32,429 nt of DNA from a virus (lineage: Duplodnaviria > Heunggongvirae > Uroviricota > Caudoviricetes). Made by a program: the position numbers and the translations under genes. Within the stretch, counting starts at the first letter, position 1. Each line of letters opens with the position of its first letter. The stretch lies in the IMG/VR virus record IMGVR_UViG_2531839528_000015; one strand, 5' to 3'. A model generated the notes under the pieces. That model ran no database searches. It was not told the origin of the DNA and was given only the letters and a program-made list of their open reading frames with translations. This document shows, one piece after another, positions 1 through 20,597 of the stretch.

Positions 1-452
1 AACACCAGCAAACAGATAAAAAAGGGCCAGCCAATTGGCCAGCCCTTCTTAACAGGATGTCGCTTAAGCGAAATCTTAGTTAAGACGCTCCCAATAAAAC
101 CACATAAAAAACATATAATTATAATAAAAACAATTAGTTAATTTAATTTTTAATGCAGTGAATTGCAATATTCTGCAACCTCCGCCGCCACTTTGCCGCC
201 ACTTAAAGCTTTATACCACACAGACTTTAGTATACCCGAGTGAAACGCTAACACATGAGGTAGTTGGAAAATTTCCGTATATGTTGTAATATTGATACGC
301 ATTATATGATTTTTACCTGATATAATGTAATTATTAGCTTCAAAATTATTTTTGCACGAATCAGGTATTACCAAGTAGTTGTCAGTTTTTAAAAACCCAA
401 CATCCTAAAATTAGCATTGTTTTTTAACCACAAAACATCCACGGAGAAGAAC

Positions 453-1262
453 GTGTCAAAAAAGGATACAATCCAGATTATCGATATCAGGATGCAGAGA
501 CCAATCATAGCAAGAATAGAAGAAGAAAATTTAAATTTGACATTGCAAATGTCAGATAAAGCCACATTATCTGGTGCGACAGTTAGTTTTTTCACCCCAA
601 ATAACGTTTCTATATTCTTATCCTCAGCAAAAAAAGAGCTCTCAAAATCCAATTCTATATATAAAAGTCTTTTTGGAAAAATACACAAAACCAAACATAA
701 AAACTTTAAAATTTCCGACAAAGACCTGCCGAGACTCTATAATTACTTTGAATCAATTCAGACGGCCATTATTTCTATGTATACTGCAATTGAGTCTTTT
801 GCAAATATATGCATACCACATGATTATGTTTATGAAAAAAACAATGCCAAGGGAATCAAAGAATCCTATAGCAAAGAGCTAATTGAGCGATATATACCAA
901 CAAGTGAAAAAATAGATAAAATCCTACCGTCTATTTTAAATTGTGATTCGCCTAAAGGTTCAAAACTATGGCAAGATTTTAAAAGCCTTGAGTCACTTAG
1001 AAATGACATAATTCACCCCAAGACAACAAAGAAAAACACAGAAACAAAAGAAGACTCATCTTTTTTATGCATTTTACTATCAGATGACTTTATAAAAAAA
1101 GTTTCCTGTGGATTTGATTTGGTATCTTATTTTTGCAAACAAGACACTACTCATAGTCTTTTCCCAATGGGTTTCGGTGAAATTGAACTTAAACCTGTCC
1201 CAATTAAAGCCGGTGACTTTGAAAAAGTTGATGATCATGATGAAATAGAATTACCATCATAA
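453..1262 (+). CDS. Hypothetical AT-rich accessory protein next to the integrase 3' end, with a possible HEPN-like Rx4H motif
   Basis: ORF-track frame 417..1262 opens with TTG. An in-frame GTG at 453 is preceded by GGAG at 443-446, so 453 is the preferred start; the first in-frame ATG is at 492. Translation is Lys/Asn/Ile-rich, unlike the backbone. Motif R-N-D-I-I-H at residues 195-200 (nt 999-1016). Confidence 0.5.
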   Translation: MSKKDTIQIIDIRMQRPIIARIEEENLNLTLQMSDKATLSGATVSFFTPNNVSIFLSSAKKELSKSNSIYKSLFGKIHKTKHKNFKISDKDLPRLYNYFESIQTAIISMYTAIESFANICIPHDYVYEKNNAKGIKESYSKELIERYIPTSEKIDKILPSILNCDSPKGSKLWQDFKSLESLRNDIIHPKTTKKNTETKEDSSFLCILLSDDFIKKVSCGFDLVSYFCKQDTTHSLFPMGFGEIELKPVPIKAGDFEKVDDHDEIELPS

Positions 1263-1310
1263 CAAAAAAACACAAACCATAAAGACGGCCATAGGTGGTC
1301 TTTATGGTTT
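1263..1310 (-). terminator. Intrinsic terminator downstream of int
   Basis: Perfect 13-bp inverted repeat aaaccataaagac (1274-1286) / gtctttatggttt (1298-1310) with an 11-nt loop. On the minus strand the hairpin is followed by a T-run (complement of caaaaaaac at 1263-1271). Confidence 0.6.
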
Positions 1311-1378
1311 ACAATAGACGCAGCCGTTATTAAATTTAAATCCAACAGCGTTAAAATAAACTAACAATATACGCATAA

Positions 1379-2419
1379 TTAATCTTTCCATTTAAAACCA
1401 TTACATAATGTTAAAGGATTAAATGTTACAGCCTCCTCAAGATGATCCGGGGAGAAATGTGCATACTTCATAGTTTCACGAATATTCGCATGACCGAGTA
1501 TACGTTGCAGCACAAGAATATTCCCGCCATTCATCATAAAATGAGCGCCGAAGGTATGACGCAGAACGTGTGTCTTTTGCCCTTCCGTCAGTTCGATATC
1601 CGTTAGTTTGAGCATCTTTTTAAACTCCTGATAGCAAGGCTTAAACATCTTTCCCTGCCTTTCAGATAATTCGTCATACAACCATTTTGGGATCGGAACG
1701 GTTCGATTCTTTTTCCCTTTCGTTTTGGTGAAGGTCAGTTTATGTGGCGAGAGCTGGGGACGTGTCAACCTCTCAGCCTCACCCCATCTAGCACCTGTTG
1801 CAAGACAAATCTTAACAATCATGGTGAGGTCTTCTTTTCCGTATTGCTCGCATGCCTGAAACAATTTCGGAATTTGAGACAAAGTGAGCCAAGACATTTC
1901 TTTCTCGGCTTCCTTGAAAACACGGACTCCATCAAGTGGATTTGGTAAGCTCCACTCCCCTAGCCTTTTGAGCTCATTAAATACAGCCTCAAGATATTGT
2001 TGCTCACGATTGACAGTTATCGGTTTAGCAATCCATTTTGCCGGGTCTTTATGATAGCCATTATCTATCTCCCCCCGAAGTCGGCGGTCACGGTAATGAG
2101 CCCAATCTTTAGCAGTAAGGCGGGATGCAATAGGGTCACCAAGTCCATTACACACGATTTGAAGTTTAGCTAACCGCGACTTACTGGCGACCAGTGCCTG
2201 TCCGTGTAAATTATGCCAAAGCTGGATAATCTCACTTAAGCGTCGGCGGTCTTCTTTCTTGCCGAGCCACGGCTTATCCTCACTCTCACTTTTCGTAAAT
2301 GCTTCGAATGCCTCGGCCTCACCTTTGGTATTGAATTGCCGACGTATACGCCGCCCTTCTCGACCATTTGGATAGAGCTCGCATAACCATTTGCCATTTT
2401 TTTGCTTACTTACAGTCAT
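1379..2419 (-). CDS. int: Tyrosine integrase (P2/186 family)
   Basis: 346-aa ORF with ATG start at 2417-2419. C-terminal tyrosine-recombinase motifs HVLRHTFGAHF and LGHANIRETMKYAHF. Lies at the prophage end, transcribed the same way as the repressor. Confidence 0.9.
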   Translation of the reverse strand: MTVSKQKNGKWLCELYPNGREGRRIRRQFNTKGEAEAFEAFTKSESEDKPWLGKKEDRRRLSEIIQLWHNLHGQALVASKSRLAKLQIVCNGLGDPIASRLTAKDWAHYRDRRLRGEIDNGYHKDPAKWIAKPITVNREQQYLEAVFNELKRLGEWSLPNPLDGVRVFKEAEKEMSWLTLSQIPKLFQACEQYGKEDLTMIVKICLATGARWGEAERLTRPQLSPHKLTFTKTKGKKNRTVPIPKWLYDELSERQGKMFKPCYQEFKKMLKLTDIELTEGQKTHVLRHTFGAHFMMNGGNILVLQRILGHANIRETMKYAHFSPDHLEEAVTFNPLTLCNGFKWKD

Positions 2420-2441
2420 AATGTCACCGAGGCAACTCTAA

Positions 2442-2780
2442 TTATTCCCAAAGTGCTGTTGCAGCATCCATTACAGGATCCAAAGGAATTTTTACGCCTG
2501 CATACTCCGGGCTATCTTTCCAAACAGTATCAATATTGCTCCCCTCAAGCTTTCCAGACTTTACTCCATCAATCGCAAAACCATTTAATGGGTATCGGTC
2601 ATCTGTTGCTTTGTCGTACACAAAGGCATATTTACCGTTGACACAAGACACCGTAGCTTTTTCAAAAGTTAACGGCCAATCCTCACCAAACTTAGCGCCA
2701 TCTAAATCCTGTGTTTTTTCAGCGGCTGAGGCTCCAAAAGAAAGGGTAAGAAGCAGAGCTAAAAAGAGTTTACATTTCAT
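2442..2780 (-). CDS. Small secreted or periplasmic protein (moron), possibly DUF2511/YebY-like
   Basis: The track ORF 2442..2852 overlaps the repressor gene. The internal Met at 2778-2780 begins a typical signal peptide MKCKLFLALLLTLSFGASAA, and a mature domain of about 90 aa follows. The YebY resemblance is from memory only. Confidence 0.55.
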   Translation of the reverse strand: MKCKLFLALLLTLSFGASAAEKTQDLDGAKFGEDWPLTFEKATVSCVNGKYAFVYDKATDDRYPLNGFAIDGVKSGKLEGSNIDTVWKDSPEYAGVKIPLDPVMDAATALWE

Positions 2781-2788
2781 AATGTCCC

Positions 2789-3649
2789 TTACACGTGTTT
2801 TTCCAATGTGAAAACTACAGCCCCGGCAGGAGTAATGTCTGTAATGTTGCATTCAAACTCAGCAGACTTATTTGACAACCTGACTTTTCCACCGGGCAAG
2901 CGAATTACATCAAAAACATCAAGAGCGCCGTCGATATCAATTAACCAGCGACCATTACTTATATTCGAAGCAGAACAGTCGACAAGCCAAGAGGCAGCTA
3001 CACCGTCAACAAAAATCAATTCCCCTGAGTTAGAAGGAATCATTGAGGGGTCAGGATGCCACGTTCCTGCATCCTTAAGCTCACCAGATTCAAGACGAGA
3101 TTTTTTAATAGAAAAACCAGATGTGACATCTTCCCTGTTAGCTCGCATTTGCCCCTTGCCTGTTGCTAACCATTCCAGTGACGTATCGGTATCAAGAGCG
3201 CATGTAACAACAACATCACCAGGGAAAAAATCTCGCCTTACCCATGTGCTAATTGTGCCAGAGGAAATGCCGAGCAAATCACCGAGCTCCTTTTGCATGG
3301 TAAAGCCATACGCATCAAGAATCCTACGCAAAACGGTTTTACCACCATTCGTCATAATCTCGTCATAAAGCTCTTTGCCTTTTAACTTGCAACTGGCTCG
3401 CTCGTGATTTGCATTTGCAAGTTCTCCATTTACAAGCCAATTGATATCAGCTCCCGTGTCAAGACAACACCTAACTATGACATTGCCAGGTATTGCATCA
3501 CGCTGAACCCAGCCGCTAACGCTGTGTTTAGCGATACCTAGCAGGTCAGCCAAATCCTTTTGCATCTTGACCCCATAGGCTGACATTAAGCGTTCCAATA
3601 CGCCGTTCGTTGCACTAACACGCCACTGAACATCAAGCTCAGAACTCAT
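2789..3649 (-). CDS. cI: Phage 186-type CI repressor with tandemly duplicated N-terminal HTH domain
   Basis: 286 aa. Two internally repeated segments align: GVLERLMSAYGVKMQKDLADLLGIAKHSVSGWVQRDAIPGNVIVRCCLDTGADINWLVNGE and TVLRRILDAYGFTMQKELGDLLGISSGTISTWVRRDFFPGDVVVTCALDTDTSLEWLATGK. They are followed by a CI C-terminal-like domain. No S24 peptidase Ser/Lys motifs recognised. Divergent from the apl-like gene. Confidence 0.8.
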   Translation of the reverse strand: MSSELDVQWRVSATNGVLERLMSAYGVKMQKDLADLLGIAKHSVSGWVQRDAIPGNVIVRCCLDTGADINWLVNGELANANHERASCKLKGKELYDEIMTNGGKTVLRRILDAYGFTMQKELGDLLGISSGTISTWVRRDFFPGDVVVTCALDTDTSLEWLATGKGQMRANREDVTSGFSIKKSRLESGELKDAGTWHPDPSMIPSNSGELIFVDGVAASWLVDCSASNISNGRWLIDIDGALDVFDVIRLPGGKVRLSNKSAEFECNITDITPAGAVVFTLEKHV

Positions 3650-3678
3650 AAAAACCCCTACAGATAATTTTATGGGTG

Positions 3679-3707
3679 TTTACAGAAAACTTTTTACGAT
3701 CTATAGT
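3679..3707 (+). promoter_or_regulatory. Candidate lytic promoter (pR-like) in the cI/apl switch region
   Basis: -35 TTTACA (3679-3684), 17-bp spacer, -10 TATAGT (3702-3707). AGGAG at 3756-3760 sits 10 nt before the ATG at 3771. Confidence 0.4.
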
Positions 3708-3770
3708 GGCATTCATCGACCAAGATGCACACCACTGCACTACATTTCAAACAACAGGAGATAATGCGAT

Positions 3771-4142
3771 ATGTCAGATGCAAAATCAATCTCGACGCAC
3801 GACTCGCAAAACTCACAAAATCAAACTGTGCTGCTAGATCCAACACAGTTTGATGCCATCGTTACCGCCATGCTGCCAGCTCTACAGACAATGATTCGCT
3901 CCGCTATGTCAGACACGATGACTGTGAAAGACTTCGCCGCTACTCGCGGTGTTAGCGAGCGTCTGGTCTGGCAATGGCTCGATGAGGGAGTCCTTCTCAA
4001 AGCTCCGACCAAAGACTTTTCCAACAAAGAAGAAGCTGCTAAACGAAGCCGAACCCTCGTAAACGTAAAAGCATGGCGCGATAAGCTGACTCAACAAGCG
4101 ATTGATTGTCGCTACATCGACCAGCGCACCGCTCTTAACTGA
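3771..4142 (+). CDS. Apl/Cox-like excisionase and switch regulator (HTH)
   Basis: First gene divergent from the repressor. Translation contains MTVKDFAATRGVSERLVWQWLDEGVLL, an HTH typical of phage Cox/Apl/AlpA-like proteins. The Ser/Gln-rich N-terminal extension makes the true start uncertain. Confidence 0.6.
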   Translation: MSDAKSISTHDSQNSQNQTVLLDPTQFDAIVTAMLPALQTMIRSAMSDTMTVKDFAATRGVSERLVWQWLDEGVLLKAPTKDFSNKEEAAKRSRTLVNVKAWRDKLTQQAIDCRYIDQRTALN

Positions 4143-4174
4143 ATTTGATTATGCAAGTTAGAGGGAATTTAACC

Positions 4175-4684
4175 ATGTTTGATTTTCAGGTTTCCAAACA
4201 TCCCCACTATGACGAAGCATGCCGCATTTTCGCACAGCGTCACAATATGGCGAAGCTGGCCGAGCGTGCAGGTATGAACGTTCAAACGTTACGTAACAAG
4301 CTCAACCCGGAACAGCCTCACCAGTTCACGCCGTCTGAATTGTGGCTGCTGACTGACCTGACCGAAGACTCAACCCTCATTGATGGTTTTTTAGCGCAGA
4401 TTCACTGCCTACCATGCGTGCCGGTTAATGAGTTGGCTAAAGACAAATTGCAGTCTTATGTCATGCGCGCAATGCGTGAACTCGGCGAACTGGCGAGCGG
4501 CGCGGTATCTGATGAACGTCTGACCATTGCCCGTAAGCACAACATGATTGAAAGCGTTAACTCCGGCATTCGCATGTTGTCATTGTCGGCTCTGGCTCTG
4601 CATGCACGTCTGCAGACTAATCCAGCTATGTCGAGCGTGGTCGATACCATGAGCGGTATTGGCGCATCGTTTGGTCTGATTTGA
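4175..4684 (+). CDS. cII: CII-like lysogeny establishment regulator (186 CII family)
   Basis: Start moved to the ATG at 4175-4177, preceded by GAGGGA at 4161-4166. Product begins MFDFQVSKHPHYDEACRIFAQRHNMAKLAERAGMNVQTLRNKL, resembling 186 CII as I recall it. Position after apl matches. Confidence 0.75.
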   Translation: MFDFQVSKHPHYDEACRIFAQRHNMAKLAERAGMNVQTLRNKLNPEQPHQFTPSELWLLTDLTEDSTLIDGFLAQIHCLPCVPVNELAKDKLQSYVMRAMRELGELASGAVSDERLTIARKHNMIESVNSGIRMLSLSALALHARLQTNPAMSSVVDTMSGIGASFGLI

Positions 4685-4691
4685 GGTGCGT

Positions 4692-4892
4692 ATGCTGAAA
4701 AGTGAACCGTCATTCGCATCTCTGCTCGTTAAGCAAAGCCCCGGCATGCACTACGGCCACGGCTGGATCGCAGGTAAGGACGGCAAGCGCTGGCACCCGA
4801 GCCACTCGCAGGCTGATTTACTGGCTGGCCTCTCTACTCAAAAGCGGGGGGGCTCATGGCTATCGAAGCTGTTTCCGCGACTGTTCCGCTAA
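4692..4892 (+). CDS. Hypothetical small protein
   Basis: ATG at 4692 with GAGGTG three nt upstream. Overlaps the next ORF start, and coding status is uncertain. Confidence 0.3.
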   Translation: MLKSEPSFASLLVKQSPGMHYGHGWIAGKDGKRWHPSHSQADLLAGLSTQKRGGSWLSKLFPRLFR

Positions 4893-5194
4893 AAGCGGGT
4901 GAACGTCTGGCCGGTCTCAATCATGTTGCCGAATTGCGCGCGAGATATTGGGGCGATAGCTGGAAAGAGGTTGAACGTTTTGTCGATGATATGCGCGATA
5001 AACGTGACCCACAATTTGAAGAAAATAATCGGGCGCTGGCCGCTATTTTCTTTCTGGCAAAAATACCGGCGGCTCGTCATGAACTCGAATTAAGTGAGCT
5101 GACTACTGACGAGAAAAAGGCGCTTATTACAGCGATGAATCATTTTCGTGCAGTAGTGAGCTTATTTCCCAAACGGCTAACCATGCCGAATTAA
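4856..5194 (+). CDS. Hypothetical early-region protein
   Basis: 112-aa ORF in the cII-to-A early operon, with a G-rich stretch before the ATG. Confidence 0.5.
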   Translation: MAIEAVSATVPLKAGERLAGLNHVAELRARYWGDSWKEVERFVDDMRDKRDPQFEENNRALAAIFFLAKIPAARHELELSELTTDEKKALITAMNHFRAVVSLFPKRLTMPN

Positions 5195-5261
5195 TCCAAA
5201 CAGAAATTTAATGGCGTAAACCCGCCGGGCATCTTATTGCCCGAAATCAGGAGAGTTAATT

Positions 5262-5710: not shown

Positions 5711-5711
5711 A

Positions 5712-7934: not shown

Positions 7935-8008
7935 TTCATATCCATATCATGCACATACAGCAATCGCTCTATTCGTTTTTTTTCTTCCCATCTTTTGCCA
8001 ATACGTGC

Positions 8009-8028
8009 TACTGTATAAATATACAGTA
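8009..8028 (+). promoter_or_regulatory. LexA (SOS) box overlapping a promoter
   Basis: tactgtataaatatacagta is a near-perfect CTGT-N8-ACAG palindrome. A -35-like TTGCCA sits at 7995-8000 and a strong GGGAGG Shine-Dalgarno at 8036-8041. Confidence 0.7.
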
Positions 8029-8047
8029 ACCCTGTGGGAGGGATTTC

Positions 8048-8230
8048 ATGGTTGGCGAACATTTCAGCCGAACGCAGCAAAAGTGGGCTTGTGTGCAATT
8101 TATTGCCGAGGTATCTCTGATTGCAAACTGCAAGCCATCAGACTTAAAGCTCGCGCTCACTCTCATTGCAGACCTAGCAAACAGCGAGAATAACGAAACC
8201 GAAGATGATAATTTTTATAAGGCTGATTAG
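8048..8230 (+). CDS. Small SOS-controlled protein, possibly the N-terminal part of a Tum-like antirepressor
   Basis: 60-aa ORF directly behind the LexA box and GGGAGG. It ends at TAG 8228-8230 and is in the same frame as the DinI-like ORF that starts one codon later. Confidence 0.45.
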   Translation: MVGEHFSRTQQKWACVQFIAEVSLIANCKPSDLKLALTLIADLANSENNETEDDNFYKAD

Positions 8231-8233
8231 ATT

Positions 8234-8467
8234 ATGAGAATCAATATCACGTTGGATAAAGAGCAAAAAATTAGTCAGGCAACATTGGATGCACTTGAGG
8301 CTGAACTGTACCGCAATCTTCAACCTATTTACCCAAAGACTGCTATCCGAATTCGCAAGGGCTCCGCTAATGGCGTTGAACTAAGCGGTTTGAAACTGGA
8401 CGAAGATAAAAAACGAGTAATGGAAATCATGCAGCAGGTATGGGAGGACGATAGCTGGCTGCATTAA
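8234..8467 (+). CDS. DinI-family protein
   Basis: MRINITLDKEQKISQATLDALEAELYRNLQPIYP...EDKKRVMEIMQQVWEDDSW follows the E. coli DinI pattern (MRIEVTI...DALAGEL...EDKQRISEILQETWE). Confidence 0.8.
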   Translation: MRINITLDKEQKISQATLDALEAELYRNLQPIYPKTAIRIRKGSANGVELSGLKLDEDKKRVMEIMQQVWEDDSWLH

Positions 8468-8469
8468 CA

Positions 8470-8534
8470 AACGCCGCCGGTGCTGAAACTTGCTTTCAGT
8501 GCTGGCGGGGTTGAACAACTCGCACCGCGAGGCG
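8470..8534 (+). repeat. 65-bp stem-loop repeat, copy 1
   Basis: aacgccgccggtgctgaaacttgctttcagtgctggcggggttgaacaactcgcaccgcgaggcg. Begins 3 nt after the DinI-like stop. A 15-bp stem forms only as + strand RNA because it uses G-U pairs. Confidence 0.7.
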
Positions 8535-8662
8535 CTAGTTCTTCCTCTCAAAGTTTCTCGATGTTTTATTGGTTACACACCAGTGATGAATGGGACGTTA
8601 CCTTAGCGGGTTTTATAGTGGCGCTGTGGCAGCGCTAAATAAAATTCATTGAGGGCGATAAT

Positions 8663-8872
8663 ATGCATCGACTACCGGGCGAAATTCCGCAGCACAAAAC
8701 TAAAAGCATCAAACTGATGGCCATCGTTCATCGTCTGCAGCAGATAATGGTCAATGAGAATTTGACACCCGCCGAGCTGGTCGGGTGTGCCGAAATAGTC
8801 AGGGATAATTACGGCAAGCTGGATAGCATCAGCAAGCCGACACATTACTCACCGCCACCACGTCGACCATAG
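8663..8872 (+). CDS. Hypothetical small protein (cassette between the two repeats)
   Basis: 69-aa ORF with GAGGG seven nt upstream of the ATG. Confidence 0.45.
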   Translation: MHRLPGEIPQHKTKSIKLMAIVHRLQQIMVNENLTPAELVGCAEIVRDNYGKLDSISKPTHYSPPPRRP

Positions 8873-8874: not shown

Positions 8875-8939
8875 AACGCCGCCGGAGCTGAAACTCGCTT
8901 TCAGGTCTGGCGGGGTTGAACAACGAGCTACGCGAGGCG
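8875..8939 (+). repeat. 65-bp stem-loop repeat, copy 2
   Basis: aacgccgccggagctgaaactcgctttcaggtctggcggggttgaacaacgagctacgcgaggcg. Differs from copy 1 at about 8 of 65 positions and begins 3 nt after the stop of the 69-aa ORF. Confidence 0.7.
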
Positions 8940-9005
8940 TTAGCCGGTCATAGCGTCGCAAATACTTCAACCGTCTGCTGGTTAAATAATTCGAGGTTTT
9001 TGGAC

Positions 9006-9366: not shown

Positions 9367-9526
9367 ATGCCATTTTTCCGCGAATTTCCCGTTTTTTAGT
9401 CGTGCATGCATCAGGTGCATGGTTTTGCATGCGTCAGTCTTGCCCGTTCTGTCCGTGCGCCGCCAGAGCTAGCGCGGATCCAGAGTTGTCATGCAACTGC
9501 ATTAAAACCGCCCCATAAAGCGGGCA

Positions 9527-9545
9527 GGCGTGGCGGGGAAAGCAT
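9527..9545. other. cos site (19-nt cohesive-end sequence, P2/186 type)
   Basis: ggcgtggcggggaaagcat matches the P2/186 cohesive-end sequence as I remember it (P2: GGCGAGGCGGGGAAAGCAC). It lies in a roughly 400-bp noncoding stretch. Confidence 0.6.
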
Positions 9546-9764
9546 TGCGCGCCAGCAGTGATGCGTAATAATAAAAATTATCCTCTGAGCGCGTCGTGAT
9601 GGCGCTGTCGTGGTCGCTGCTGGTTCGTTGGTGGTCGAGTGTGTTCGTGCGCGTGAGACGCATCTGATGCGTGATGGTGGTGTGCATGGAAAAGCCACCA
9701 GGAGCAGCGGCTTTACAGGAGTGGCAGGATTCAAACTGCTAATTATGTTTCTACTATGATTAAA

Positions 9765-10769
9765 CTAATTTACATGTATGTAGAGTTCACCGTCGCCAGA
9801 CCAATCGGGACACTCTAAAACAAGCCCAAACTGCTTGAATATTTCATCAATGATTATTGTTATCTCCCGAAAATCACCAAAACCTGTAATGTGCTGGTCA
9901 TTAAACTTCCCATAAAGATTCTGAAAAGCAATGCCTAATTCTGATAATTGATATCTTATCTTTGAGTTGGATAGTGTAAGGGATAGCTTTGGATCGTATT
10001 CTTTAATATTGATGTTTAGAGAATGGACATAACCCATCGCATAAGCATAAGAGTTGATGATTAGCCTGATACGTTTTTTTACTTCAAGATACATGTCATT
10101 CAGAGAAATATTACCGTACTTATAACCCCAGATGAGTTTTTCAATCTCGTCAGATACTTCATTTACAACAGTGTCAAGATTCTCTAAAAATAAATCGACA
10201 GTTTCTTGAGGGGCAGACCCCGAAGACATGTAATTAGCGAGATATTCAGACCATGCACGCGTGGCTGAGATAAGAAGCGCGCTACCATACTCGTTGACTG
10301 TAAAGTTTTGGGCTAAGCATGTTAGTAAGTTTTTTTCATGTACGTGCACTAATTCATGGTGAATGCGATGGATGACTGCGAGGTATCCTTCTTCTTTCAG
10401 TTTTAAGAAGCTACCATCATTGAAAAGCTCAACAAAAAAATCAATCGATAGCACAAGGGTATATTCTTCATATAGCCCATCATTGCCAATTTTTGTTACT
10501 AACTGCCCGACGGCTGCGCCCTGTTTGCTATTGGTAAATGAACTAGGGGATTTGTGTTGGTAAGAGGATGTTACCTTTTGAAGAGCTTCACTGAAGTTAT
10601 AGGAAACAATCACGCATTTTAATTTGGAGATATCAAGATTGAGATTCTTTGTTAAAGCTCGGATAGCTTCTAGTGTGAAATTACCGATATTATTTGCTTC
10701 TTGCTCAGTAGCGAAACCTTCGAGGGTTATTTTAAAATCAGTTTCCAAAATATTAATCTCCGCGCCCAT
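9765..10769 (-). CDS. Hypothetical AT-rich 334-aa protein with an HExxH motif, between cos and Q (candidate defence or exclusion cargo)
   Basis: ATG at 10767-10769. Asn/Ile/Leu/Glu-rich translation. HRIHHELVHVHE at residues 134-145 (nt 10344-10358). No Walker A motif and no transmembrane segment seen. Confidence 0.7.
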   Translation of the reverse strand: MGAEINILETDFKITLEGFATEQEANNIGNFTLEAIRALTKNLNLDISKLKCVIVSYNFSEALQKVTSSYQHKSPSSFTNSKQGAAVGQLVTKIGNDGLYEEYTLVLSIDFFVELFNDGSFLKLKEEGYLAVIHRIHHELVHVHEKNLLTCLAQNFTVNEYGSALLISATRAWSEYLANYMSSGSAPQETVDLFLENLDTVVNEVSDEIEKLIWGYKYGNISLNDMYLEVKKRIRLIINSYAYAMGYVHSLNINIKEYDPKLSLTLSNSKIRYQLSELGIAFQNLYGKFNDQHITGFGDFREITIIIDEIFKQFGLVLECPDWSGDGELYIHVN

Positions 10770-10787
10770 TGTTTTGATATTCGATGC

Positions 10788-10816
10788 ACTATAGCTTTCG
10801 CAGATTGCATCTTCAA
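10788..10816 (-). promoter_or_regulatory. Candidate sigma70 promoter for the 334-aa gene
   Basis: On the minus strand: -35 TTGAAG (complement of 10811-10816), 17-bp spacer, -10 TATAGT (complement of 10788-10793). It lies in the 78-bp gap below the Q stop. Confidence 0.4.
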
Positions 10817-10846
10817 TAATGAGCGCAGAGATTGTGGCGGCCTAAG

Positions 10847-11893
10847 TTATTCTGGGTTGTCGAGGGTGTACTCTTTGAATCTGATGACCTCCATGCCGAG
10901 CCAGTCATTTACCTCCCTGAACCTGTCCTGTAGCGGCGACAGCTCGTTGCGCACAAATACCTTTGCCACCTTCTCAACATCACCGAGTGAACCGATATTC
11001 TCGGGCTTGCCGCCCATGAGCTGGAACGGTACGCGGTGCGCGTCCATCAGATCGGCGGCACTGGCCTTCTTGATGTTGAAAAAGTCATCCTTTGTGGCGA
11101 CCTCGCTCAGTGGCACGATTTTGATGCCGTCCGGTTTTCCGCCGGGAGCGTAGAAAAACAGGTTCTTAAAGTTGCCGAGCCCTTTTGAGTTGCGCATCGC
11201 CTCGCGCAGCGATTCGACGTCGGTCGCGCTCTGCGCCGGGTCAGTCACATACATGATGTAGCCTGCGTGCGCGCCGTTCTGATAATACTTGCGGCGGAAC
11301 AGCGTCGCGGATTCATTCAGCCAAGCGGAATTAAGCGCGCTGAGATATTCCGGCAGACCGTAAATCTCCTGATTAATGTCGGGCTCCAGCAGGTGAAACA
11401 CGGTATCAGGCGCGAACTCGTGCGGCTGGGTGAAGTTTTCCACAAACCAGAAAATCGAATCGTCGACTCCGCGTCGGGTGTATTTGGCTGGCGAGGCCAG
11501 CAGTTTGATTAACTGGCCGGTGACGCTGTGGCGCTGCTCAAGAAAGGCGTTACCGAACACCAGATAATCGAGCGCAAAGCGGCTGAAATCCTGACGGGAT
11601 AACAACGGGTGCGGAATGTAGGTGCTCGCGAGCACGTTACGCTTAACATAAATTGGCGAGCTGTGATGCACGGCAGAGCGCAGGCTCTTTGCCAGCCCTG
11701 AGAAGCTGACCGGCGGCTCGTACCATTTGCCGTTACTGATGCACTCGACGTAATCCAGAATGTCGCGCTTATCGAGTACCGGCACCGGCTCGCCGAAGGT
11801 GAACGCTGTCGTTTTTGGCGGTGCGCTGGCGGTCAGTTGTTGTGGTTTGCTGGCCTTTTGTGCGTTGGCTTTACGGGATTTTTGTTTACCCAT
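10847..11893 (-). CDS. Q: Portal protein (P2 gpQ-like)
   Basis: 348 aa, the size and position of P2 Q, adjacent to and co-oriented with the large terminase. Confidence 0.9.
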   Translation of the reverse strand: MGKQKSRKANAQKASKPQQLTASAPPKTTAFTFGEPVPVLDKRDILDYVECISNGKWYEPPVSFSGLAKSLRSAVHHSSPIYVKRNVLASTYIPHPLLSRQDFSRFALDYLVFGNAFLEQRHSVTGQLIKLLASPAKYTRRGVDDSIFWFVENFTQPHEFAPDTVFHLLEPDINQEIYGLPEYLSALNSAWLNESATLFRRKYYQNGAHAGYIMYVTDPAQSATDVESLREAMRNSKGLGNFKNLFFYAPGGKPDGIKIVPLSEVATKDDFFNIKKASAADLMDAHRVPFQLMGGKPENIGSLGDVEKVAKVFVRNELSPLQDRFREVNDWLGMEVIRFKEYTLDNPE

Positions 11894-14684: not shown

Positions 14685-14760
14685 TAAACCGCAGACCAGA
14701 AACCGGGCGGCATCCCCGCCCGATGCAGTGACTAACCGATAAATTCAAACAGGAAATACT

Positions 14761-15828
14761 ATGCGCCCGGATACCCGTTTTAAGTTCAATGCCTATCTGA
14801 CCCGCGTCGCTGAGCTAAACGGCATCAGCACTGATGACGTCAGTAAAAAATTCACCGTCGAGCCGTCCGTCACGCAAACACTGATGAACAAAGTGCAGGA
14901 GTCATCCGCGTTTCTGCAGACGATTAATATTCTGCCGGTCGCAGAAATGAAGGGTGAGAAAATCGGCGTCGGTGTGACCGGTACTATCGCCAGCACGACC
15001 GACACCTCGGGCGATGATGAGCGTAAGACCGCCGACTTCACCGCGCTTGAGTCCAACAAGTACGAGTGCGACCAAATTAATTTTGACTTCCATCTGAAAT
15101 ATAAAACCCTCGACCTGTGGGCGCGTTTTCAGGACTTCCAGCGCCGCATCCGCGACGCCATTGTCAAACGTCAGGCACTGGATTTCATCATGGCCGGTTT
15201 TAACGGTACCACCCGCGCCGCCACCTCTGACCGCACCAAAAATCCGATGCTGCAGGATGTGGCCGTCGGCTGGCTGCAGAAATACCGCAATGAAGCCCCG
15301 ACGCGCGTGATGAGCAACATCACCGACGCTGACGGTAAGGTCGTTTCAGCAGTGATTCGTGTAGGTCGAAACGGCGACTATGAGAACCTCGACGCGCTGG
15401 TGATGGACGCCACCAACAACCTGATTGACGAGGTTTATCAGGATGACCCGAAACTCGTTGCCATCGTTGGCCGTAAGCTGCTGGCCGACAAATATTTCCC
15501 GCTGGTGAACAAGCCGCAGGAAAACAGCGAGGCGCTTGCGGCAGATATCATCATCAGCCAGAAGCGAATCGGCAACCTGCCTGCTGTGCGTGTGCCGTAC
15601 TTCCCGGCGAATGCCGTGTTAGTGACCACGCTGGAAAACCTATCTATCTATTTCATGGATGAGAGTCACCGCCGCAGCATTGATGAAAACCCGAAAAAAG
15701 ACCGCGTTGAAAACTACGAGTCGATGAATATCGACTATGTGGTCGAGGCGTATGCCGCCGGGTGCCTGCTGGAAAACATCACCCTGGGCGATTTCACCGC
15801 ACCTGCAGCACCGGAAAGCGGAGCCTAA
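14761..15828 (+). CDS. N: Major capsid protein (P2 gpN-like)
   Basis: 355 aa, begins MRPDTRFKFNAYLTRVAELNG with VEPSVTQTLMN. Confidence 0.9.
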   Translation: MRPDTRFKFNAYLTRVAELNGISTDDVSKKFTVEPSVTQTLMNKVQESSAFLQTINILPVAEMKGEKIGVGVTGTIASTTDTSGDDERKTADFTALESNKYECDQINFDFHLKYKTLDLWARFQDFQRRIRDAIVKRQALDFIMAGFNGTTRAATSDRTKNPMLQDVAVGWLQKYRNEAPTRVMSNITDADGKVVSAVIRVGRNGDYENLDALVMDATNNLIDEVYQDDPKLVAIVGRKLLADKYFPLVNKPQENSEALAADIIISQKRIGNLPAVRVPYFPANAVLVTTLENLSIYFMDESHRRSIDENPKKDRVENYESMNIDYVVEAYAAGCLLENITLGDFTAPAAPESGA

Positions 15829-15831
15829 ACC

Positions 15832-16581
15832 ATGACGAGCCCCGCACAGCGTCACATGATGCGGGTCTCGGCCTCTCAAGCCGCGCAGCGGGAGCAAGCC
15901 CCGCTGCGCCATGCAACCGCCTATGAGCAGATGCTGGTTAAGCTGGCCGATGACCGCCGCACGTTAAAAAACATCCGTTCAAACGAACGTAAAGCCGAGA
16001 AAAAGCGCGAGCTGCTGCCGTTCTATGCGCCGTGGGTCGCCGGTGTGCTGGCTGATGGCCGTGGTGCGCAGGATGACATTGTCATGACCGTCATGCTGTG
16101 GCGTCTCGATGCCGGTGATATCGCTGGCGCGCTGGAAATTGCCCCGTACGCGCTGAAATACGGCCTCACCTCTGACCACCGCCGCACAACACCTTACATG
16201 CTGGTTGAGGAAGTGGCGCTTGCTGCGCAGCGCCTGCGCGATGCCGGTGAGTCTGTCGACCTTTCCTGGCTGCAGACCACTATCGACCTGACCGACGGCG
16301 CTGACGTTCCCGATATGGTGCGCGCCCGTCTGCATAAGGTGACAGGCCTGACCCTGCGTGATGCCGGTATGAATGCAGAGGCGCTGGCGCAGTTTCAGCG
16401 CGCGATGCAGCTCGACCGCAATGCCGGTGTGCGCAAGGAGATTGAGCGACTGGAACGGGCATTGAAGCCAAAGCCAGAGGCCGCGCCCCGTAAAACGACT
16501 AAACCGCGCACGCGCAAACCTGCCAACAAACCGGCGGCAAAGCGCGGGCGTCCACCAAAGGCGGTAAAAACCGCCGGTTAA
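15832..16581 (+). CDS. M: Terminase small (endonuclease) subunit (P2 gpM-like)
   Basis: 249 aa with a basic Lys/Arg/Pro-rich C-terminus, positioned after N. Confidence 0.85.
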   Translation: MTSPAQRHMMRVSASQAAQREQAPLRHATAYEQMLVKLADDRRTLKNIRSNERKAEKKRELLPFYAPWVAGVLADGRGAQDDIVMTVMLWRLDAGDIAGALEIAPYALKYGLTSDHRRTTPYMLVEEVALAAQRLRDAGESVDLSWLQTTIDLTDGADVPDMVRARLHKVTGLTLRDAGMNAEALAQFQRAMQLDRNAGVRKEIERLERALKPKPEAAPRKTTKPRTRKPANKPAAKRGRPPKAVKTAG

Positions 16582-16674
16582 CTGAACGCTCCCCGAGCCG
16601 GGCGGCACGCCGGTCAAAGCAGGTTTTAACCCTGACGGCGACCGGCGTCCACCGCCCAACCTAATGAGGTTGTC

Positions 16675-17184
16675 ATGACGACAGTAATACTGAATCAGCC
16701 CGACGAACCGCAGGACGTACCGGGCGTGGTGATTCCCGCACCGGAGACGGGCGACGCAGTGATTAAAAACACGTTCTTTTTCCCTGATGTGGATCCGAAG
16801 CGGGTGCGCGAACTGATGCGCCTTGAGCAGACGGTTTCCGATGCGCGCCTGCGCAACGCCATCAAGACCGGCATGGCGGAAACCAATGCGGAGCTTTACG
16901 ACTACCGGCTGCGCCAGATTGCCGCAGGGTTTAAGACACTGGCCGACGTGCCTGACGCCGAGGAAATCGACGGCGAGAATGTGCGCGTTTTCCACTACCT
17001 CAGCGCCGTGACGGCGATGGCGACCGCCACCCTGTATGAGCGTTATCGCGGGGTTGAGGCCACGGGCAAGGGTGACAAAAAAGCCGACAGCGTCGAAACC
17101 ACCATTGATGACCTGTGGCGGGATATGCGCTGGTCGGTCTCGCGTCTGCAGGACAAGCCGCGCTGCATCGTGGGTCAGCTCTGA
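16675..17184 (+). CDS. L: Head completion protein (P2 gpL-like)
   Basis: 169 aa. Its stop overlaps the X start in ATGA. Confidence 0.85.
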   Translation: MTTVILNQPDEPQDVPGVVIPAPETGDAVIKNTFFFPDVDPKRVRELMRLEQTVSDARLRNAIKTGMAETNAELYDYRLRQIAAGFKTLADVPDAEEIDGENVRVFHYLSAVTAMATATLYERYRGVEATGKGDKKADSVETTIDDLWRDMRWSVSRLQDKPRCIVGQL

Positions 17185-17387
17185 TGAAAGTCTACGCGAT
17201 GCAGGGCGACACCCTCGACGCGCTTTGCGCCCGGTATTACGGGCGCACTGAGGGCGTGGTCGAGACGGTGCTGCAGGCTAATCCCGGTCTGTCTGAGCTG
17301 GGCGTCATTCTGCCGCATGGCACGGCGATTGACCTGCCCGACGTGGCATCGTCACCCGTAACAGAAACTATCAACCTTTGGGAGTAA
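17184..17387 (+). CDS. X: Tail protein X (P2 gpX-like)
   Basis: Start moved to the internal ATG at 17184. Product begins MKVYAMQGDTLDALCARYYGRTEGVVETVLQANPGL. Confidence 0.8.
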   Translation: MKVYAMQGDTLDALCARYYGRTEGVVETVLQANPGLSELGVILPHGTAIDLPDVASSPVTETINLWE

Positions 17388-17390
17388 ACC

Positions 17391-17687
17391 ATGACAGAAG
17401 GGGAAAAAGGCGTCCTGTCACTGTTTGTGATTGGCGTGATGATTGTTGTCGGAAAAGTGCTGGCGGGTGGTGAGCCCATTACCCCGCGCCTGTTTATCGG
17501 CCGCATGCTGCTCGGCGGTTTTGTTTCAATGGTCGCCGGTGTTGTTCTGGTGCAGTTTCCAGATATGTCACTGCCTGCCGTTTGTGGGATTGGATCCATG
17601 CTCGGCATTGCAGGTTATCAGGTGGTGGAAATCGCCATTCAGCGCCGCTTTAAGTCACAACAGGGGGATAGCGATGCCGATCATTAA
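17391..17687 (+). CDS. Y: Holin (P2 gpY-like)
   Basis: 98 aa with hydrophobic helices and a charged C-terminus. GGAG precedes the ATG. Confidence 0.8.
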   Translation: MTEGEKGVLSLFVIGVMIVVGKVLAGGEPITPRLFIGRMLLGGFVSMVAGVVLVQFPDMSLPAVCGIGSMLGIAGYQVVEIAIQRRFKSQQGDSDADH

Positions 17688-18171
17688 TACTCACCAGAAT
17701 ATCGCCGCATTTCTGGACATGCTGGCCTATTCCGAAGGGACGGCGACGCATCCGCTGACGAAAAATCGTGGTTACGACGTCATTGTCACTGGCCTTGATG
17801 GCAAGCCGGAAATTTTCACCGACTACACCGACCACCCTTTCGCACATGGCAGACCAGCGAAAGTGTTTAATCGACGCGGCGAAAAATCCACGGCATCAGG
17901 GCGTTACCAGCAGCTTTATCTCTACTGGCCGCACTATCAGAAACAACTCGCATTGCCTGATTTCAGCCCGTTGTCGCAGGACAAACTTGCGATTCAGTTA
18001 ATCCGCGAACGCGGTGCCATTGAGGATATTAAGGCGGGGCGTATTGAGCGGGCAATTTCACGGTGCCGCAATATCTGGGCGTCGTTACCGGGTGCCGGTT
18101 ACGGCCAACGTGAGCACAGCCTCGACAAACTGGTCACCGTATGGCGCACCGCTGGCGGGGTAATGGAATGA
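17674..18171 (+). CDS. K: Endolysin (P2 gpK-like)
   Basis: Start moved to the ATG at 17674 (MPIINTHQNIAAFLDMLAYSEGTA...). Overlaps the holin stop. Confidence 0.85.
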   Translation: MPIINTHQNIAAFLDMLAYSEGTATHPLTKNRGYDVIVTGLDGKPEIFTDYTDHPFAHGRPAKVFNRRGEKSTASGRYQQLYLYWPHYQKQLALPDFSPLSQDKLAIQLIRERGAIEDIKAGRIERAISRCRNIWASLPGAGYGQREHSLDKLVTVWRTAGGVME

Positions 18172-18581
18172 AAATCCTGATTACACTTCTGGTGCTGACT
18201 GTGCTCGGGATGTTGTGGTTGCGCCATGAGAACGGCAATTTATCCCGCTCCTTTGAGACAGCAAACCGCGTCGCGAGCGAACAAAAGACGACGATTGGCA
18301 TGCTGAAAAATCAGCTCAGTGTTGCCGGTCAGCTTGCCAGACGTAATGAATCTGCGCAGGTGGCACTGCGTGAACAGCTCGCAAAGGCCAGCGAGGAAGC
18401 CAGCCGCCGCGAGCAATCAATAACGAGGTTACTTAATGAAAATGAAGCCTTTCGCCGCTGGTATAACGCTGCTTTACCTGATGTTGTGCGTCGGTTGCAC
18501 ACCCGACCCGCCTGCGCCAGCGCCGGTGATTGTGGTCAGCGGATGCCCGAGGGTGAGCCTTTGCCCGATGCCGGGCAGTGA
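18168..18581 (+). CDS. lysB: Spanin inner-membrane subunit (LysB/Rz-like)
   Basis: Start at ATG 18168 overlapping the K stop. N-terminal transmembrane helix MKILITLLVLTVLGMLWL followed by a charged region. Confidence 0.7.
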   Translation: MKILITLLVLTVLGMLWLRHENGNLSRSFETANRVASEQKTTIGMLKNQLSVAGQLARRNESAQVALREQLAKASEEASRREQSITRLLNENEAFRRWYNAALPDVVRRLHTRPACASAGDCGQRMPEGEPLPDAGQ

Positions 18582-18726
18582 CCCGAAAACCAATGGTGAC
18601 CTGAGCGCGGATATCCGCCGTCTTGAGGGCGCGCTGACTGCCTGCGCGCTGCAGGTCAAAACCGTCAAACACTGTCAGGATGAACTCGATGCAGAAGCAC
18701 AAAAGCCTGCGCAAGGCGCTGATTAA
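18436..18726 (+). CDS. lysC: Spanin outer-membrane lipoprotein subunit (LysC/Rz1-like)
   Basis: Begins inside lysB in another frame. Signal peptide with a lipobox-like LCVGC, then a Pro-rich stretch. Confidence 0.55.
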   Translation: MKMKPFAAGITLLYLMLCVGCTPDPPAPAPVIVVSGCPRVSLCPMPGSDPKTNGDLSADIRRLEGALTACALQVKTVKHCQDELDAEAQKPAQGAD

Positions 18727-19156
18727 CGCTGTACCCCAGCTCAGAAACAACCCCGATATGCTGCGTCTTTTCGCCGACAACGGGCATATCGATTCCCGAC
18801 TGGCGAGCTCGCTGTCGTTTGAAAAGGTGTACGTGCTTAACATGGTGGTGACCGACTTTACCGGCGACCTCGATTTGATATTCGTGCCAGTGCAGGCGTG
18901 GCTGCGTGAACATCAGCCGGACATTATGACCACCGACGACGGGCGGGAAAAAGGATTCACCTGGATTATTGATATCAATAACGACGATTCGCTCGATATC
19001 AGTATCAGCCTGAGGCTCACCGAGCGCACGCTCGTCAAAGAGGTCGACGGCGCGCTGCATGTCAGCTATGCCCCAGAGCCGCCGCTGCCTGAGCCGGTGA
19101 CGCGCCCGGTCGAGCTGTACGTTAATGGCGAACTGGTGAGTAAGTGGGATGAGTGA
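18680..19156 (+). CDS. R: Tail completion protein (P2 gpR-like)
   Basis: 158 aa at the P2 R position. An alternative start is the ATG at 18689. Confidence 0.8.
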   Translation: MNSMQKHKSLRKALINAVPQLRNNPDMLRLFADNGHIDSRLASSLSFEKVYVLNMVVTDFTGDLDLIFVPVQAWLREHQPDIMTTDDGREKGFTWIIDINNDDSLDISISLRLTERTLVKEVDGALHVSYAPEPPLPEPVTRPVELYVNGELVSKWDE

Positions 19157-19604
19157 GTTAACCGCGCTACAGGAACGTCTTGCCGGTCTGATTGCCAGCC
19201 TGTCACCGGCGGCGCGTCGGCAAATGGCGGCTGACATTGCAAAAAAACTGCGCGCCAGTCAGCAACAGCGCATTAAGCGCCAGCAGGCACCTGACGGCAC
19301 CCCGTATGCCGCCAGAAAGCGCCAGCCGGTGCGGAGCAAGAGAGGCCGTATCAGGCGCGAAATGTTCGCCAAACTGCGCAGCACTAACCGCTTTATGAAA
19401 GCCAAAGGCAGCGACAGTGCGGCAGTGGTGGAGTTTACCGACAAGGTACAGCGCATGGCGCGGGTGCATCAGTACGGCCTCAAAGACCGGCCAAACCGCA
19501 ACAGCCGGGATGTGCAGTACGAGGCACGCCCGTTGTTCGGTTTCACCCGGGACGATGAACTGCTTGTTGAGAAGCTAATAATCGGAGCTATTAGAAATGG
19601 TTAA
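19149..19604 (+). CDS. S: Tail completion protein (P2 gpS-like)
   Basis: 151 aa at the P2 S position, overlapping the R stop. Confidence 0.85.
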   Translation: MSELTALQERLAGLIASLSPAARRQMAADIAKKLRASQQQRIKRQQAPDGTPYAARKRQPVRSKRGRIRREMFAKLRSTNRFMKAKGSDSAAVVEFTDKVQRMARVHQYGLKDRPNRNSRDVQYEARPLFGFTRDDELLVEKLIIGAIRNG

Positions 19605-19656
19605 TTAACAAAAGCATGCTAACTCTTGACAATTTGACAACTAGAGTGCACCCTAA

Positions 19657-19682
19657 CGCCAGTCAATAGAGTGCGACTGGCG
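19657..19682. terminator. Stem-loop between convergent S and the pentapeptide-repeat gene
   Basis: Perfect 8-bp inverted repeat cgccagtc / gactggcg with a 10-nt loop. A weaker AAGATT-TT-AATCTT dyad lies at 19687-19700. No clean U-tract. Confidence 0.4.
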
Positions 19683-19721
19683 TCAAGGAAGATTTTAATC
19701 TTTCTTTAGTGGTTCGATTCC

Positions 19722-20597
19722 CTAGCCTCGTAAATATCGTTTAGTAAATTTCGTGTTTGGTCTGGATGATAGGATTTGTCTTTCTATTTCACTATCACAG
19801 TCTATATAGTCTAGTGTATTAGCTTCTATAAGTTTGTTCACGTCAATATTTTTTGCATCGATTATGTTGGCATTTCTAAGGTTTGCATTGGTGTATTCCA
19901 CTTTATCCAAATCACACTCTCTGAGTACGCAACTTTTCATTTCCGCATTGGAAAAATCCCCACCATATAAATAGCAGCCTTCAAAAATAACACCGTTTAA
20001 CTTTGAATCCTGAGCTTTAATATTTTTTATTTTACACTTTATAAATTTTACGTTTTTCATTTTGCTCTTGCTAATATTTAATGCCTGGATTGTACATCCA
20101 GTGAAAGAACAGTCTCTTATGTTAGATTTTTCCATATTTAACCCAGATAGTTCTGAGGTTTTAAAGTGTAAGTATTTAATGGTAAAAAGGTCACCCAACT
20201 CCATTCTGGGTATGTCTATATTGAAGACACCTTTATTGTTGAGCTGTCTTATTATTTTTATTTTTTGTATTTTCAAATCAACATTAACGTGCTTAGCTAA
20301 GTTTCCCAAATCCTCAAGAAGTTCATTAATCGTTTCTTTGTTTTGTCTTCTGTATTCAAAGTAATAAAGGATGACACCTAATACAAAAAAATCCAAAATG
20401 GATGAATTTGCATTTATTAGGAACCCAGACAGGAATGAATCATTGTAATTACCATAGTGTATAGAGGCAAGTGTTACGCCAAATGCATATAAAATAAAAA
20501 TAATAAACACGTGCTTCATTTTGCATAAGGATTGTATTATTGGTTTTATGGCATCAATTTTGTTCATTGCTGCAGCAGCGAAAGATTTAAAAGTCAT
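19722..20597 (-). CDS. Membrane-anchored pentapeptide-repeat protein (AT-rich moron at the P2 orf30 position between S and V)
   Basis: 291 aa. Two hydrophobic helices (VFIIFILYAFGVTLASI and ILDFFVLGVILYYF), then pentapeptide-repeat-like sequence (NISKSKMKNVKFIKCKIKNIKAQDSKLNGVIFEGCYLYGGDFSNAEMKSCVLRECDLDKVEYTNANLRNANII). Opposite strand to both neighbours. Confidence 0.7.
   Translation of the reverse strand: MTFKSFAAAAMNKIDAIKPIIQSLCKMKHVFIIFILYAFGVTLASIHYGNYNDSFLSGFLINANSSILDFFVLGVILYYFEYRRQNKETINELLEDLGNLAKHVNVDLKIQKIKIIRQLNNKGVFNIDIPRMELGDLFTIKYLHFKTSELSGLNMEKSNIRDCSFTGCTIQALNISKSKMKNVKFIKCKIKNIKAQDSKLNGVIFEGCYLYGGDFSNAEMKSCVLRECDLDKVEYTNANLRNANIIDAKNIDVNKLIEANTLDYIDCDSEIERQILSSRPNTKFTKRYLRG

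Follow-up and report, generated by a model that had tools for sequence, protein, structure and literature searches.

Why does an otherwise GC-rich phage genome carry three AT-rich genes, each alone at a boundary between core modules, and what do these genes do? The question is raised by virus record IMGVR_UViG_2531839528_000015, a 32,429-nucleotide stretch of DNA (hereafter the window) in which an initial annotation had singled out the open reading frames (ORFs) at 453-1262, 9765-10769, and 19722-20597 (genes 1, 2, and 3) as independently acquired morons, accessory rather than core in function. ORF listing, base composition, and BLAST matches place the window among 186/PSP3-type phages of the P2 family (Peduoviridae), as a prophage in an Escherichia coli chromosome between yfiB and rplS; E. 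coli strain E1535 carries a 100%-identical prophage, also located between yfiB and rplS. Genes 1 to 3, which are predicted to encode a HEPN-domain protein, a gluzincin-fold zinc metallopeptidase, and a pentapeptide-repeat membrane protein, were shown to be dispensable cargo that is exchanged independently in known hotspots. We put the probability at roughly 0.6 that all three encode single-protein anti-phage or exclusion functions benefiting the lysogen, an assignment made by analogy with known systems.

The cargo status of the genes is evident from their distribution. All three ORFs are real, the RefSeq annotation of the 100%-identical genome having identical calls, and none is universally conserved, as synteny with P2-like relatives shows absence at each of the three sites. 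Among 5,426 complete E. coli genomes, gene 1 was found in 19, gene 2 in 26, and gene 3 in 4. Gene 1 occurs without gene 2 in 14 genomes and gene 2 without gene 1 in 21; the 5 genomes that share genes 1 and 2 comprise 4 with all three genes and 1 that lacks gene 3. From these combinations it follows that the three slots change independently. Independent acquisition of the genes as morons was therefore supported, with refinements concerning the age of gene 2, which is an old resident, and the mode of exchange, which is cassette replacement.

The slots themselves are familiar ones. The region between gpA and gpQ is the classical old/tin ("TO") hotspot, described by Rousset et al. (2022, PMC9122126) as a reservoir of many anti-phage systems, and the TO region, the Z region, and orf30 (between S and V) were listed as horizontal-transfer loci in 2010 (PMC3091744, citing Nilsson et al. 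and earlier work). A survey of thousands of P2-like prophages (Nucleic Acids Research 2026, PMC13586616) adds minor defense hotspots: 3% of systems lie between int and att, 8% at int-primase, and 16% downstream of GpL, within the tail genes. The three segments studied here share with this hotspot cargo their positions, their AT-rich, variable, and mostly single- or few-gene content, the existence of empty or differently filled relatives, and the presence of known defense systems in those relatives; they differ in that genes 1 to 3 are not homologs of old, tin, or orf30 and match no PADLOC model. The three-slot pattern is thus already published, and our analysis is new only in the identity of the three cargo proteins.

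All three genes lie within the prophage. Host DNA extends up to position 90 and ends in the attL crossover core AGTTAAGACGCTC (78-90), which consists of the last codons and stop codon of host rplS and recurs as an identical 13-mer at attR (locus L002, 34870-34882). The unoccupied K-12 attB is identical to window positions 1-90 and then continues into rplS; phage DNA therefore starts at position 91, and gene 1 is inside the prophage and not part of the host flank. A host origin for gene 1 had been suspected, since most phage records match the window only from ~1413, but it was ruled out by attB, by the att core, and by homology over 91-201: positions 1-201 align at 86.7% identity with the segment of phage vB_EcoM-613R3, the closest relative, that spans the region downstream of yfiB, att, and the 3' end of int. 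The prophage left end, or attP arm (91-201), contains GCCGCCA repeats resembling those at attR, and these repeats flanking both att arms may be Int arm sites. Integration into a tRNA gene was ruled out, as none is present and the insertion site is the 3' end of rplS. At attR, which lies outside the window (L002, 34780-34882), there are phage-borne, diverged versions of the rplS 3' end and of the terminator hairpin found between yfiB and rplS, so that in the integrated state phage-supplied sequence completes and terminates rplS. The 3' limit of the window falls inside gene D, and the right end of the prophage is beyond it.

The compositional contrast that first drew attention to the genes is real. 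Sliding 500-bp GC falls below 0.40 over only three segments in the whole 32 kb, which correspond to positions 202-1411, 9701-10846, and 19605-20750 (segments 1, 2, and 3); their GC contents are 0.316, 0.381, and 0.336, respectively, versus 0.535 for the window minus the segments. GC content and GC at third codon positions (GC3) are 0.319 and 0.267 for gene 1, 0.376 and 0.364 for gene 2, and 0.316 and 0.315 for gene 3, whereas the GC content of the 37 backbone genes ranges from 0.42 to 0.62. Amino acid composition is shifted as well, FYMINK residues making up 0.34-0.43 of proteins 1 to 3 versus 0.22-0.28. Codon adaptation, which had been expected to differ too, did so in part: on a codon adaptation index (CAI)-type measure calculated with three reference sets, the three genes are lowest or near-lowest (z of about -1.5 to -2.4 relative to backbone genes), but int, cI, and U overlap this range, so the index sets genes 1 to 3 apart from the late genes and not from the lysogeny module. 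Low GC is also kept in GC-rich hosts, at 33% in a Serratia locus of 59% GC, 41% in a Simplicispira locus of 64% GC, and 33% in a Klebsiella prophage of 57% GC; by base composition across these loci, low GC is shown to belong to the circulating pool of cargo genes and not to the host.

Each segment holds one gene, and each lies at a module boundary as initially described, namely attL/int, cos/portal, and S/V, the last being the meeting point of the O-to-S and V-to-G late operons. Two other features ascribed to all three genes needed correction. The genes had been placed on the strand opposite to their neighbors, which holds for gene 1, convergent with int, and for gene 3, antisense to S and V, but not for gene 2, which is on the minus strand like Q and P. 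Weak or absent Shine-Dalgarno (SD) sequences were likewise found before gene 3 only, where a scan detected none at any candidate start; the GTG start of gene 1 is preceded by GGAG (duplex energy, -6.6 kcal/mol), and GGAG also precedes an in-frame TTG in gene 2. The earlier observation is thus partly confirmed: the pattern is real, once the strand of gene 2 and the SD sequences are corrected.

Low GC, poor codon adaptation, patchy distribution, and the missing SD sequence of gene 3 could also mark the segments as decaying, functionless foreign DNA, that is, AT-rich junk or pseudogenes at neutral sites. This is most improbable, and it is largely refuted by data on selection and conservation drawn from the sequences: the ORFs are intact, full length, and conserved across genera with invariant catalytic residues. 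Gene 1 has a ratio of nonsynonymous to synonymous substitution rates (dN/dS) of 0.03, and gene 2 one of 0.24. The structural model of gene 2 is confident (predicted local distance difference test [pLDDT] score of 90), and the gene 2 family, which is unnamed, comprises 353 clusters at 50% identity with uniform length.

How the segments are exchanged can be read from their edges. At S/V, segment 3 (1,146 bp) is the intergenic region between the tail-completion gene S (19149-19604, plus strand) and the baseplate gene V (20751-21386, plus strand), the first gene of the next late operon, which is the classical P2 orf30 position. S and V are adjacent in 186, where the spacer is 69 bp, and in PSP3, SEN1, Midge, EtG, and Yersinia phages, with ~30 phages besides 186 being empty at this site as well as at cos-Q; the S-V span is 1,154 bp in phages in which the two genes are adjacent versus 2,238 bp here. 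Blastn homology to relatives stops at 19540-19545, within S; all S variants share the sequence ...DVQYEARPLLG, after which the last 18-20 codons (here from ~19541) are specific to the cargo type and form part of the exchanged cassette. At the other end of the prophage, segment 1 (1,210 bp), between the att arm and int, stands in for 11 bp of vB_EcoM-613R3 together with the last ~10 codons of the integrase gene int (1379-2419, minus strand), whose C-terminal tail is altered by the segment while the catalytic-Tyr motif MKYAHF is kept. These junctions fit exchange by cassette replacement, through recombination inside the 3' ends of core genes (S and int), and not clean insertion; recombination runs through conserved flanking sequence, so that each cassette carries its own 3' tail of S or int. 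The moron concept was developed for lambdoid phages (Juhala/Hendrix). Like lambdoid morons, genes 1 to 3 are additions to a row of core genes that close relatives lack and whose composition deviates; they differ from them in that gene 2 shares a late operon terminator and in that exchange replaces the 3' ends of flanking genes instead of cleanly adding DNA.

Among related prophages, the S/V slot is found in at least six states and with at least five alternative cargoes, including a pentapeptide gene 53% identical to gene 3, a HIT-family pair, a PD-T4-7-like gene, a two-gene unit, and a 347-aa gene. The alternative cargoes all have GC contents of 0.30-0.39, versus 0.56-0.60 for their flanks, and the majority, with some exceptions, run antisense to S and V. 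This S/V backbone was seen in 70 E. coli genomes, and gene 3 is present in 4 of them.

Gene 1 (453-1262, plus strand) encodes a 269-aa protein with an Rx4-6H motif, R183-N184-D-I-I-H188, that does not vary among 13 sequences, with identities as low as 29%. Its predicted fold is an all-alpha, up-down helical bundle that matches solved HEPN domains, the best structural matches of the model being HEPN toxins from toxin-antitoxin pairs. No match was found in local Pfam or NCBIfam libraries, and precomputed tables give PF27216 (YopA_C) for its homologs, flagged as weak; single-sequence and profile searches of the PDB gave no significant match. The family is tiny (15 clusters), and gene 1 is absent from the phage collection by both DNA and protein search. 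A Serratia homolog (84% amino acid identity) is carried by a P4-like satellite in its int-to-psu/delta hotspot, with int on one side and the Ogr/Delta operon on the other; judging from these two contexts, the gene moves between element types, from P4-satellite to P2-phage hotspots or the reverse. Common mobile flanks of the P2 and P4 copies were rejected as an explanation, as DNA homology is limited to the ORF and ribosome-binding site. Between the convergent gene 1 and int lies a terminator-like hairpin and T-tract (1287-1310, plus strand), found by consensus scan only. The single-protein HEPN defenses HepS and RAZR are precedents (PMC13434031): like HepS, from prophage Gifsy-1, and RAZR, gene 1 is a single prophage gene that has no partner and whose product combines a predicted HEPN domain and its invariant Rx4H motif with an extra N-terminal region. 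It differs from them in having no sequence similarity to any solved structure and in belonging to a family of 15 clusters.

Gene 3 (19722-20597, minus strand) encodes a 291-aa protein with two transmembrane (TM) helices predicted from hydropathy at its N terminus (residues 23-49 and 58-78) and ~24 pentapeptide repeats in register from about residue 136 to 260; Pfam matches are PF13599 (68.9 bits; cutoff, 38) and PF00805 (47.9 bits; cutoff, 20.2), and the tandem repeats are predicted to be of the right-handed beta-helix type. A promoter-like element, TTGACA-17-AAAAAT (20635-20663, minus strand), matches consensus at 10 of 12 positions 38 bp 5' of the gene, the number of such hits not exceeding that in shuffled sequence. 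Klebsiella P2-like prophages have a homolog of 53% identity in this slot, oriented as here, whereas identity reaches 82-85% for the S and V proteins on either side; the gene 3 family therefore diverges much faster than its flanks. The pentapeptide proteins of the S/V slot (19722-20597 here; L001, 20758-21594; L007, 6001-6873) are likewise ~52% identical to one another where S and V are 82-85% identical, which suggests ancient alleles or rapid diversification. Homology to P2 orf30 or other phage proteins was sought by tblastn and rejected, the search giving only the prophage-derived vB_EcoM-613R3 and unrelated mycobacteriophage repeat proteins.

The closest named relative in outline is HalA of the Hailong system, a DNA-gated ion channel with pentapeptide repeats whose partner is the nucleotidyltransferase HalB. 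HalA shares with gene 3 both pentapeptide repeats and TM helices, and its model (NF051894) is the best NCBIfam match of gene 3. An identity with HalA was nevertheless rejected, because the score is 42 bits versus a cutoff of 250, the domains are ordered differently, and the partner gene is missing. Alignment to PDB 9nyi is confined to the repeats (E = 0.004; HalA residues 82-154 of 371, profile positions 18-128 of 338); the TM helices precede the repeats in gene 3, whereas the repeats are N-terminal in HalA, its TM position being inferred; and the slot has room for a single gene both here and in the Klebsiella homolog locus, with no HalB-like gene in either. Identity with Qnr or MfpA was rejected too, at 28-38 bits versus cutoffs of 240-500 and with two predicted TM helices in gene 3.

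Some of the same matches could be taken to mean that the genes have no part in phage defense and are carried for lysogenic conversion or fitness, with gene 3 a membrane-tethered, Qnr/MfpA-like protein that shields gyrase from toxins or quinolones, gene 2 a protease whose targets are regulatory or envelope proteins of the host, and gene 1 the toxin of an addiction module that keeps the prophage stable. Pentapeptide matches do include Qnr, MfpA, and the type III secretion system effectors PipB and PipB2 at scores similar to that of HalA, and the toxins at the top of the structural matches of gene 1 come from toxin-antitoxin pairs; in addition, the hotspots are not exclusively defensive according to PMC13586616 and a preprint (10.1101/2024.10.15.618418). 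We regard this alternative as unlikely. The low Qnr and MfpA scores and the two TM helices of gene 3 speak against a gyrase protector, gene 1 is the sole ORF in its 1.2-kb segment and has no adjacent antitoxin or MNT gene (the Serratia homolog is solitary too), and the same slots elsewhere hold recognized defense systems.

Gene 2 (9765-10769, minus strand) differs from the other two in its setting. The 186-type cos cohesive-end sequence is present as an exact match at 9527-9545 (plus strand; 0.02 matches expected by chance), aligning with 186 positions 1-19, annotated as cos. Window positions 9527-9700 align with 186 positions 1-175, and alignment resumes from window position 10847 with the 186 portal gene, from 196; segment 2 (9701-10846; 1,146 bp) is thus inserted between the portal stop codon and the tW terminator, replacing ~20 bp of 186. 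The distance from cos to the portal gene, 176 bp in 186, is ~1,300 bp here. In 186, tW comes immediately after the portal gene; here, gene 2 stands between the portal gene Q (10847-11893, minus strand) and the tW homolog (9694-9708, minus strand). In available portions of PMC3091744, PMC9122126, and PMC13586616, we found no mention of this fine position, on the portal side of cos, in the late operon, and before tW. A RefSeq "hypothetical protein" of 61 aa (9502-9687, minus strand) that overlaps cos and the tW region is probably a spurious call. The 77-bp spacer between Q and gene 2 contains a promoter-like element, TTGAAG-17-TATAGT (10788-10816, minus strand), which matches consensus and is conserved in the Salmonella homolog locus, this conservation being only at the level of the surrounding DNA. 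The annotated ATG gives a putative zinc metallopeptidase of 334 aa and has no SD sequence; however, the in-frame TTG at codon 8 (position 10748) has GGAG (-6.6), and most diverged homologs begin there. The true start is probably this TTG, which would give a protein of 327 aa, and the ATG cited as lacking an SD sequence is probably a start-call artifact.

Across 44 family sequences of 17-50% identity, H138, E139, H142, and E175 are four of six invariant columns, and spacing and fold point to an HExxH motif with E175 as the third zinc ligand. The confident model has a predicted thermolysin-like catalytic fold resembling M1, M30, M9, and M4 gluzincins. No Pfam, NCBIfam, or PADLOC match was found for gene 2, nor any consistent match for its 44 relatives, so that it falls in no named peptidase family among those searched, Lit/U49 included; sequence searches of the PDB gave nothing significant (best profile match, a zinc metallohydrolase at E = 0.037), and a BFVD fold search gave no match at an E value of ≤0.001. 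The Lit protease of prophage e14 is a zinc metalloprotease that cleaves EF-Tu when the T4 Gol peptide appears. Gene 2 resembles it in being a single, prophage-encoded gene for an HExxH zinc-peptidase-like protein of ~300 aa, but no homology to Lit was detectable with Pfam or PADLOC, and the predicted fold of gene 2 resembles the gluzincins named above.

In the phage collection, gene 2 was found solely in vB_EcoM-613R3, whereas the gene order P-Q-gene 2 is very common in Salmonella, in ~2,000 assembly blocks. Between E. coli and Salmonella prophages, nucleotide identity is 92.0% for gene 2, 91.0% for Q, and 92.8% for P, with the spacer and start region of gene 2 conserved, and on these values gene 2 is an old resident that has co-diverged with P and Q. 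This history, together with its position in the P-Q late operon (sense strand, 77 bp beyond the stop codon of the portal gene, and followed by tW), raises the alternative that gene 2 at least serves the lytic cycle, as a late protease co-transcribed with terminase and portal genes for counter-defense, for action against the P4 satellite, or for host takeover. Several observations make this rather improbable, somewhat more so than lysogenic conversion. Neither 186 nor PSP3 nor any virion-derived record searched contains gene 2, which is therefore not needed for growth; distant homologs occur outside prophages, next to NERD in Shewanella and next to a YafO toxin in Kosakonia; a conserved promoter-like element precedes the gene; and its dN/dS is ~5 times that of P and Q. 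The same gpA-cos-gpQ locus in relatives holds SIR2, retron Ec48, DUF3850, or other genes.

We return to the interpretation that we favor, in which the three genes would protect the lysogen as single proteins. The gene 1 product may combine a sensor with a HEPN RNase that is off until a protein of the infecting phage switches it on, whereupon it would cut tRNA or mRNA and abort the infection, as HepS and RAZR do. The gene 2 product may act much as Lit does, as a zinc metallopeptidase that cuts some protein of the host or the phage in the course of infection, and the gene could be transcribed from its own promoter as well as by read-through of the late P-Q operon. The gene 3 product may sit in the inner membrane and expose to the cytoplasm a pentapeptide beta-helix, a fold that mimics DNA, which would block incoming DNA or DNA-binding proteins at the membrane or gate membrane damage. 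HepS/RAZR, Lit, and HalA-type membrane effectors are accordingly offered as functional analogues of genes 1, 2, and 3, respectively; homology was tested and not found. Two observations link the cargo to defense: one alternative S/V cargo matches PD-T4-7, and the Serratia homolog of gene 1 sits in a P4-satellite defense hotspot.

Several points weigh against a defensive role. PADLOC gave no convincing match for any of the three genes: genes 2 and 3 had none at all, and the best for gene 1 was RTasHEPN at 1e-4; the N-terminal "sensor" region of gene 1 is poorly modeled (pLDDT, <50); and a literature search by the RefSeq accessions of genes 1 to 3 returned no paper. Promoter-like and terminator-like matches occur at each gene in numbers not above those in shuffled sequence, and gene 2 uses the tW terminator of the late operon. 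Guilt by location is imperfect, because the hotspots also hold nondefense cargo, and the sense orientation of gene 2 in the late operon suits a lytic-cycle function as well as it suits defense.

Other features of the window and its relatives indicate further exchange and provide context. A fourth accessory gene of lower GC, encoding a DUF2511 protein (2442-2780, minus strand; Pfam E value, 4.5e-16; GC, 0.419; GC3, 0.319) and not listed in the initial annotation, lies between int and cI; since int and cI abut directly in phage 186, it is extra cargo in the lysogenic cI-int operon, on the strand of that operon, and its position is that of the "int-primase" minor hotspot of PMC13586616. On the gpA side of cos, a small ORF (8663-8872) lies between the two copies of a 69-nt direct repeat (8470-8538 and 8875-8943; 87% identical). 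Phage 186 has a single segment, downstream of orf97, to which each copy matches; this prophage has no orf97, and the repeat looks like the scar of another cassette exchange. The tail-fiber and assembly region (23863-25643) shows a homology break relative to the closest relative and has oppositely oriented tail-fiber-assembly genes, and the identical RefSeq genome has a frameshifted recombinase (invertase) pseudogene at ~25724-25923, a decayed invertible host-range switch at the Z/fun-side hotspot. Positions 7940-8028 are homologous to the 186 p95 promoter and LexA box and lie upstream of tum/dinI-like genes (8048-8467); because of this resemblance, the prophage is probably SOS-inducible through an antirepressor, as is 186 and unlike P2. 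Unannotated cargo was also seen in relatives, namely a 313-aa gene on the gpA side of cos in vB_EcoM-613R3 (L001, 9410-10351) and, in loci L011 to L014, a pair of HIT-family and TM-protein genes, a pair encoding 140 and 170 aa, and a gene for a 347-aa TM protein; apart from the HIT domain (Pfam), these had no Pfam or PADLOC matches and are further candidates.

The pattern described here re-finds a published principle, that P2-family phages swap AT-rich accessory genes, often anti-phage ones, in a few fixed slots. Its value is as a pointer: one prophage contains three intact, selected, and uncharacterized single-gene cargoes that lie outside the defense models searched and are candidate immunity genes. 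Tentatively, and with less confidence than in a defensive role as such, the gene 2 family may be a new single-gene protease immunity like Lit, or else a late phage protease directed against host defenses or the P4 satellite, and genes 1 and 3 may likewise stand for new single-gene defense families. Salmonella prophages commonly carry members of the gluzincin family, and the HEPN gene moves between P4-satellite and P2-phage hotspots. The location of gene 2 in a late operon raises the question of whether some hotspot cargo may serve the lytic cycle of the phage and not the lysogen.

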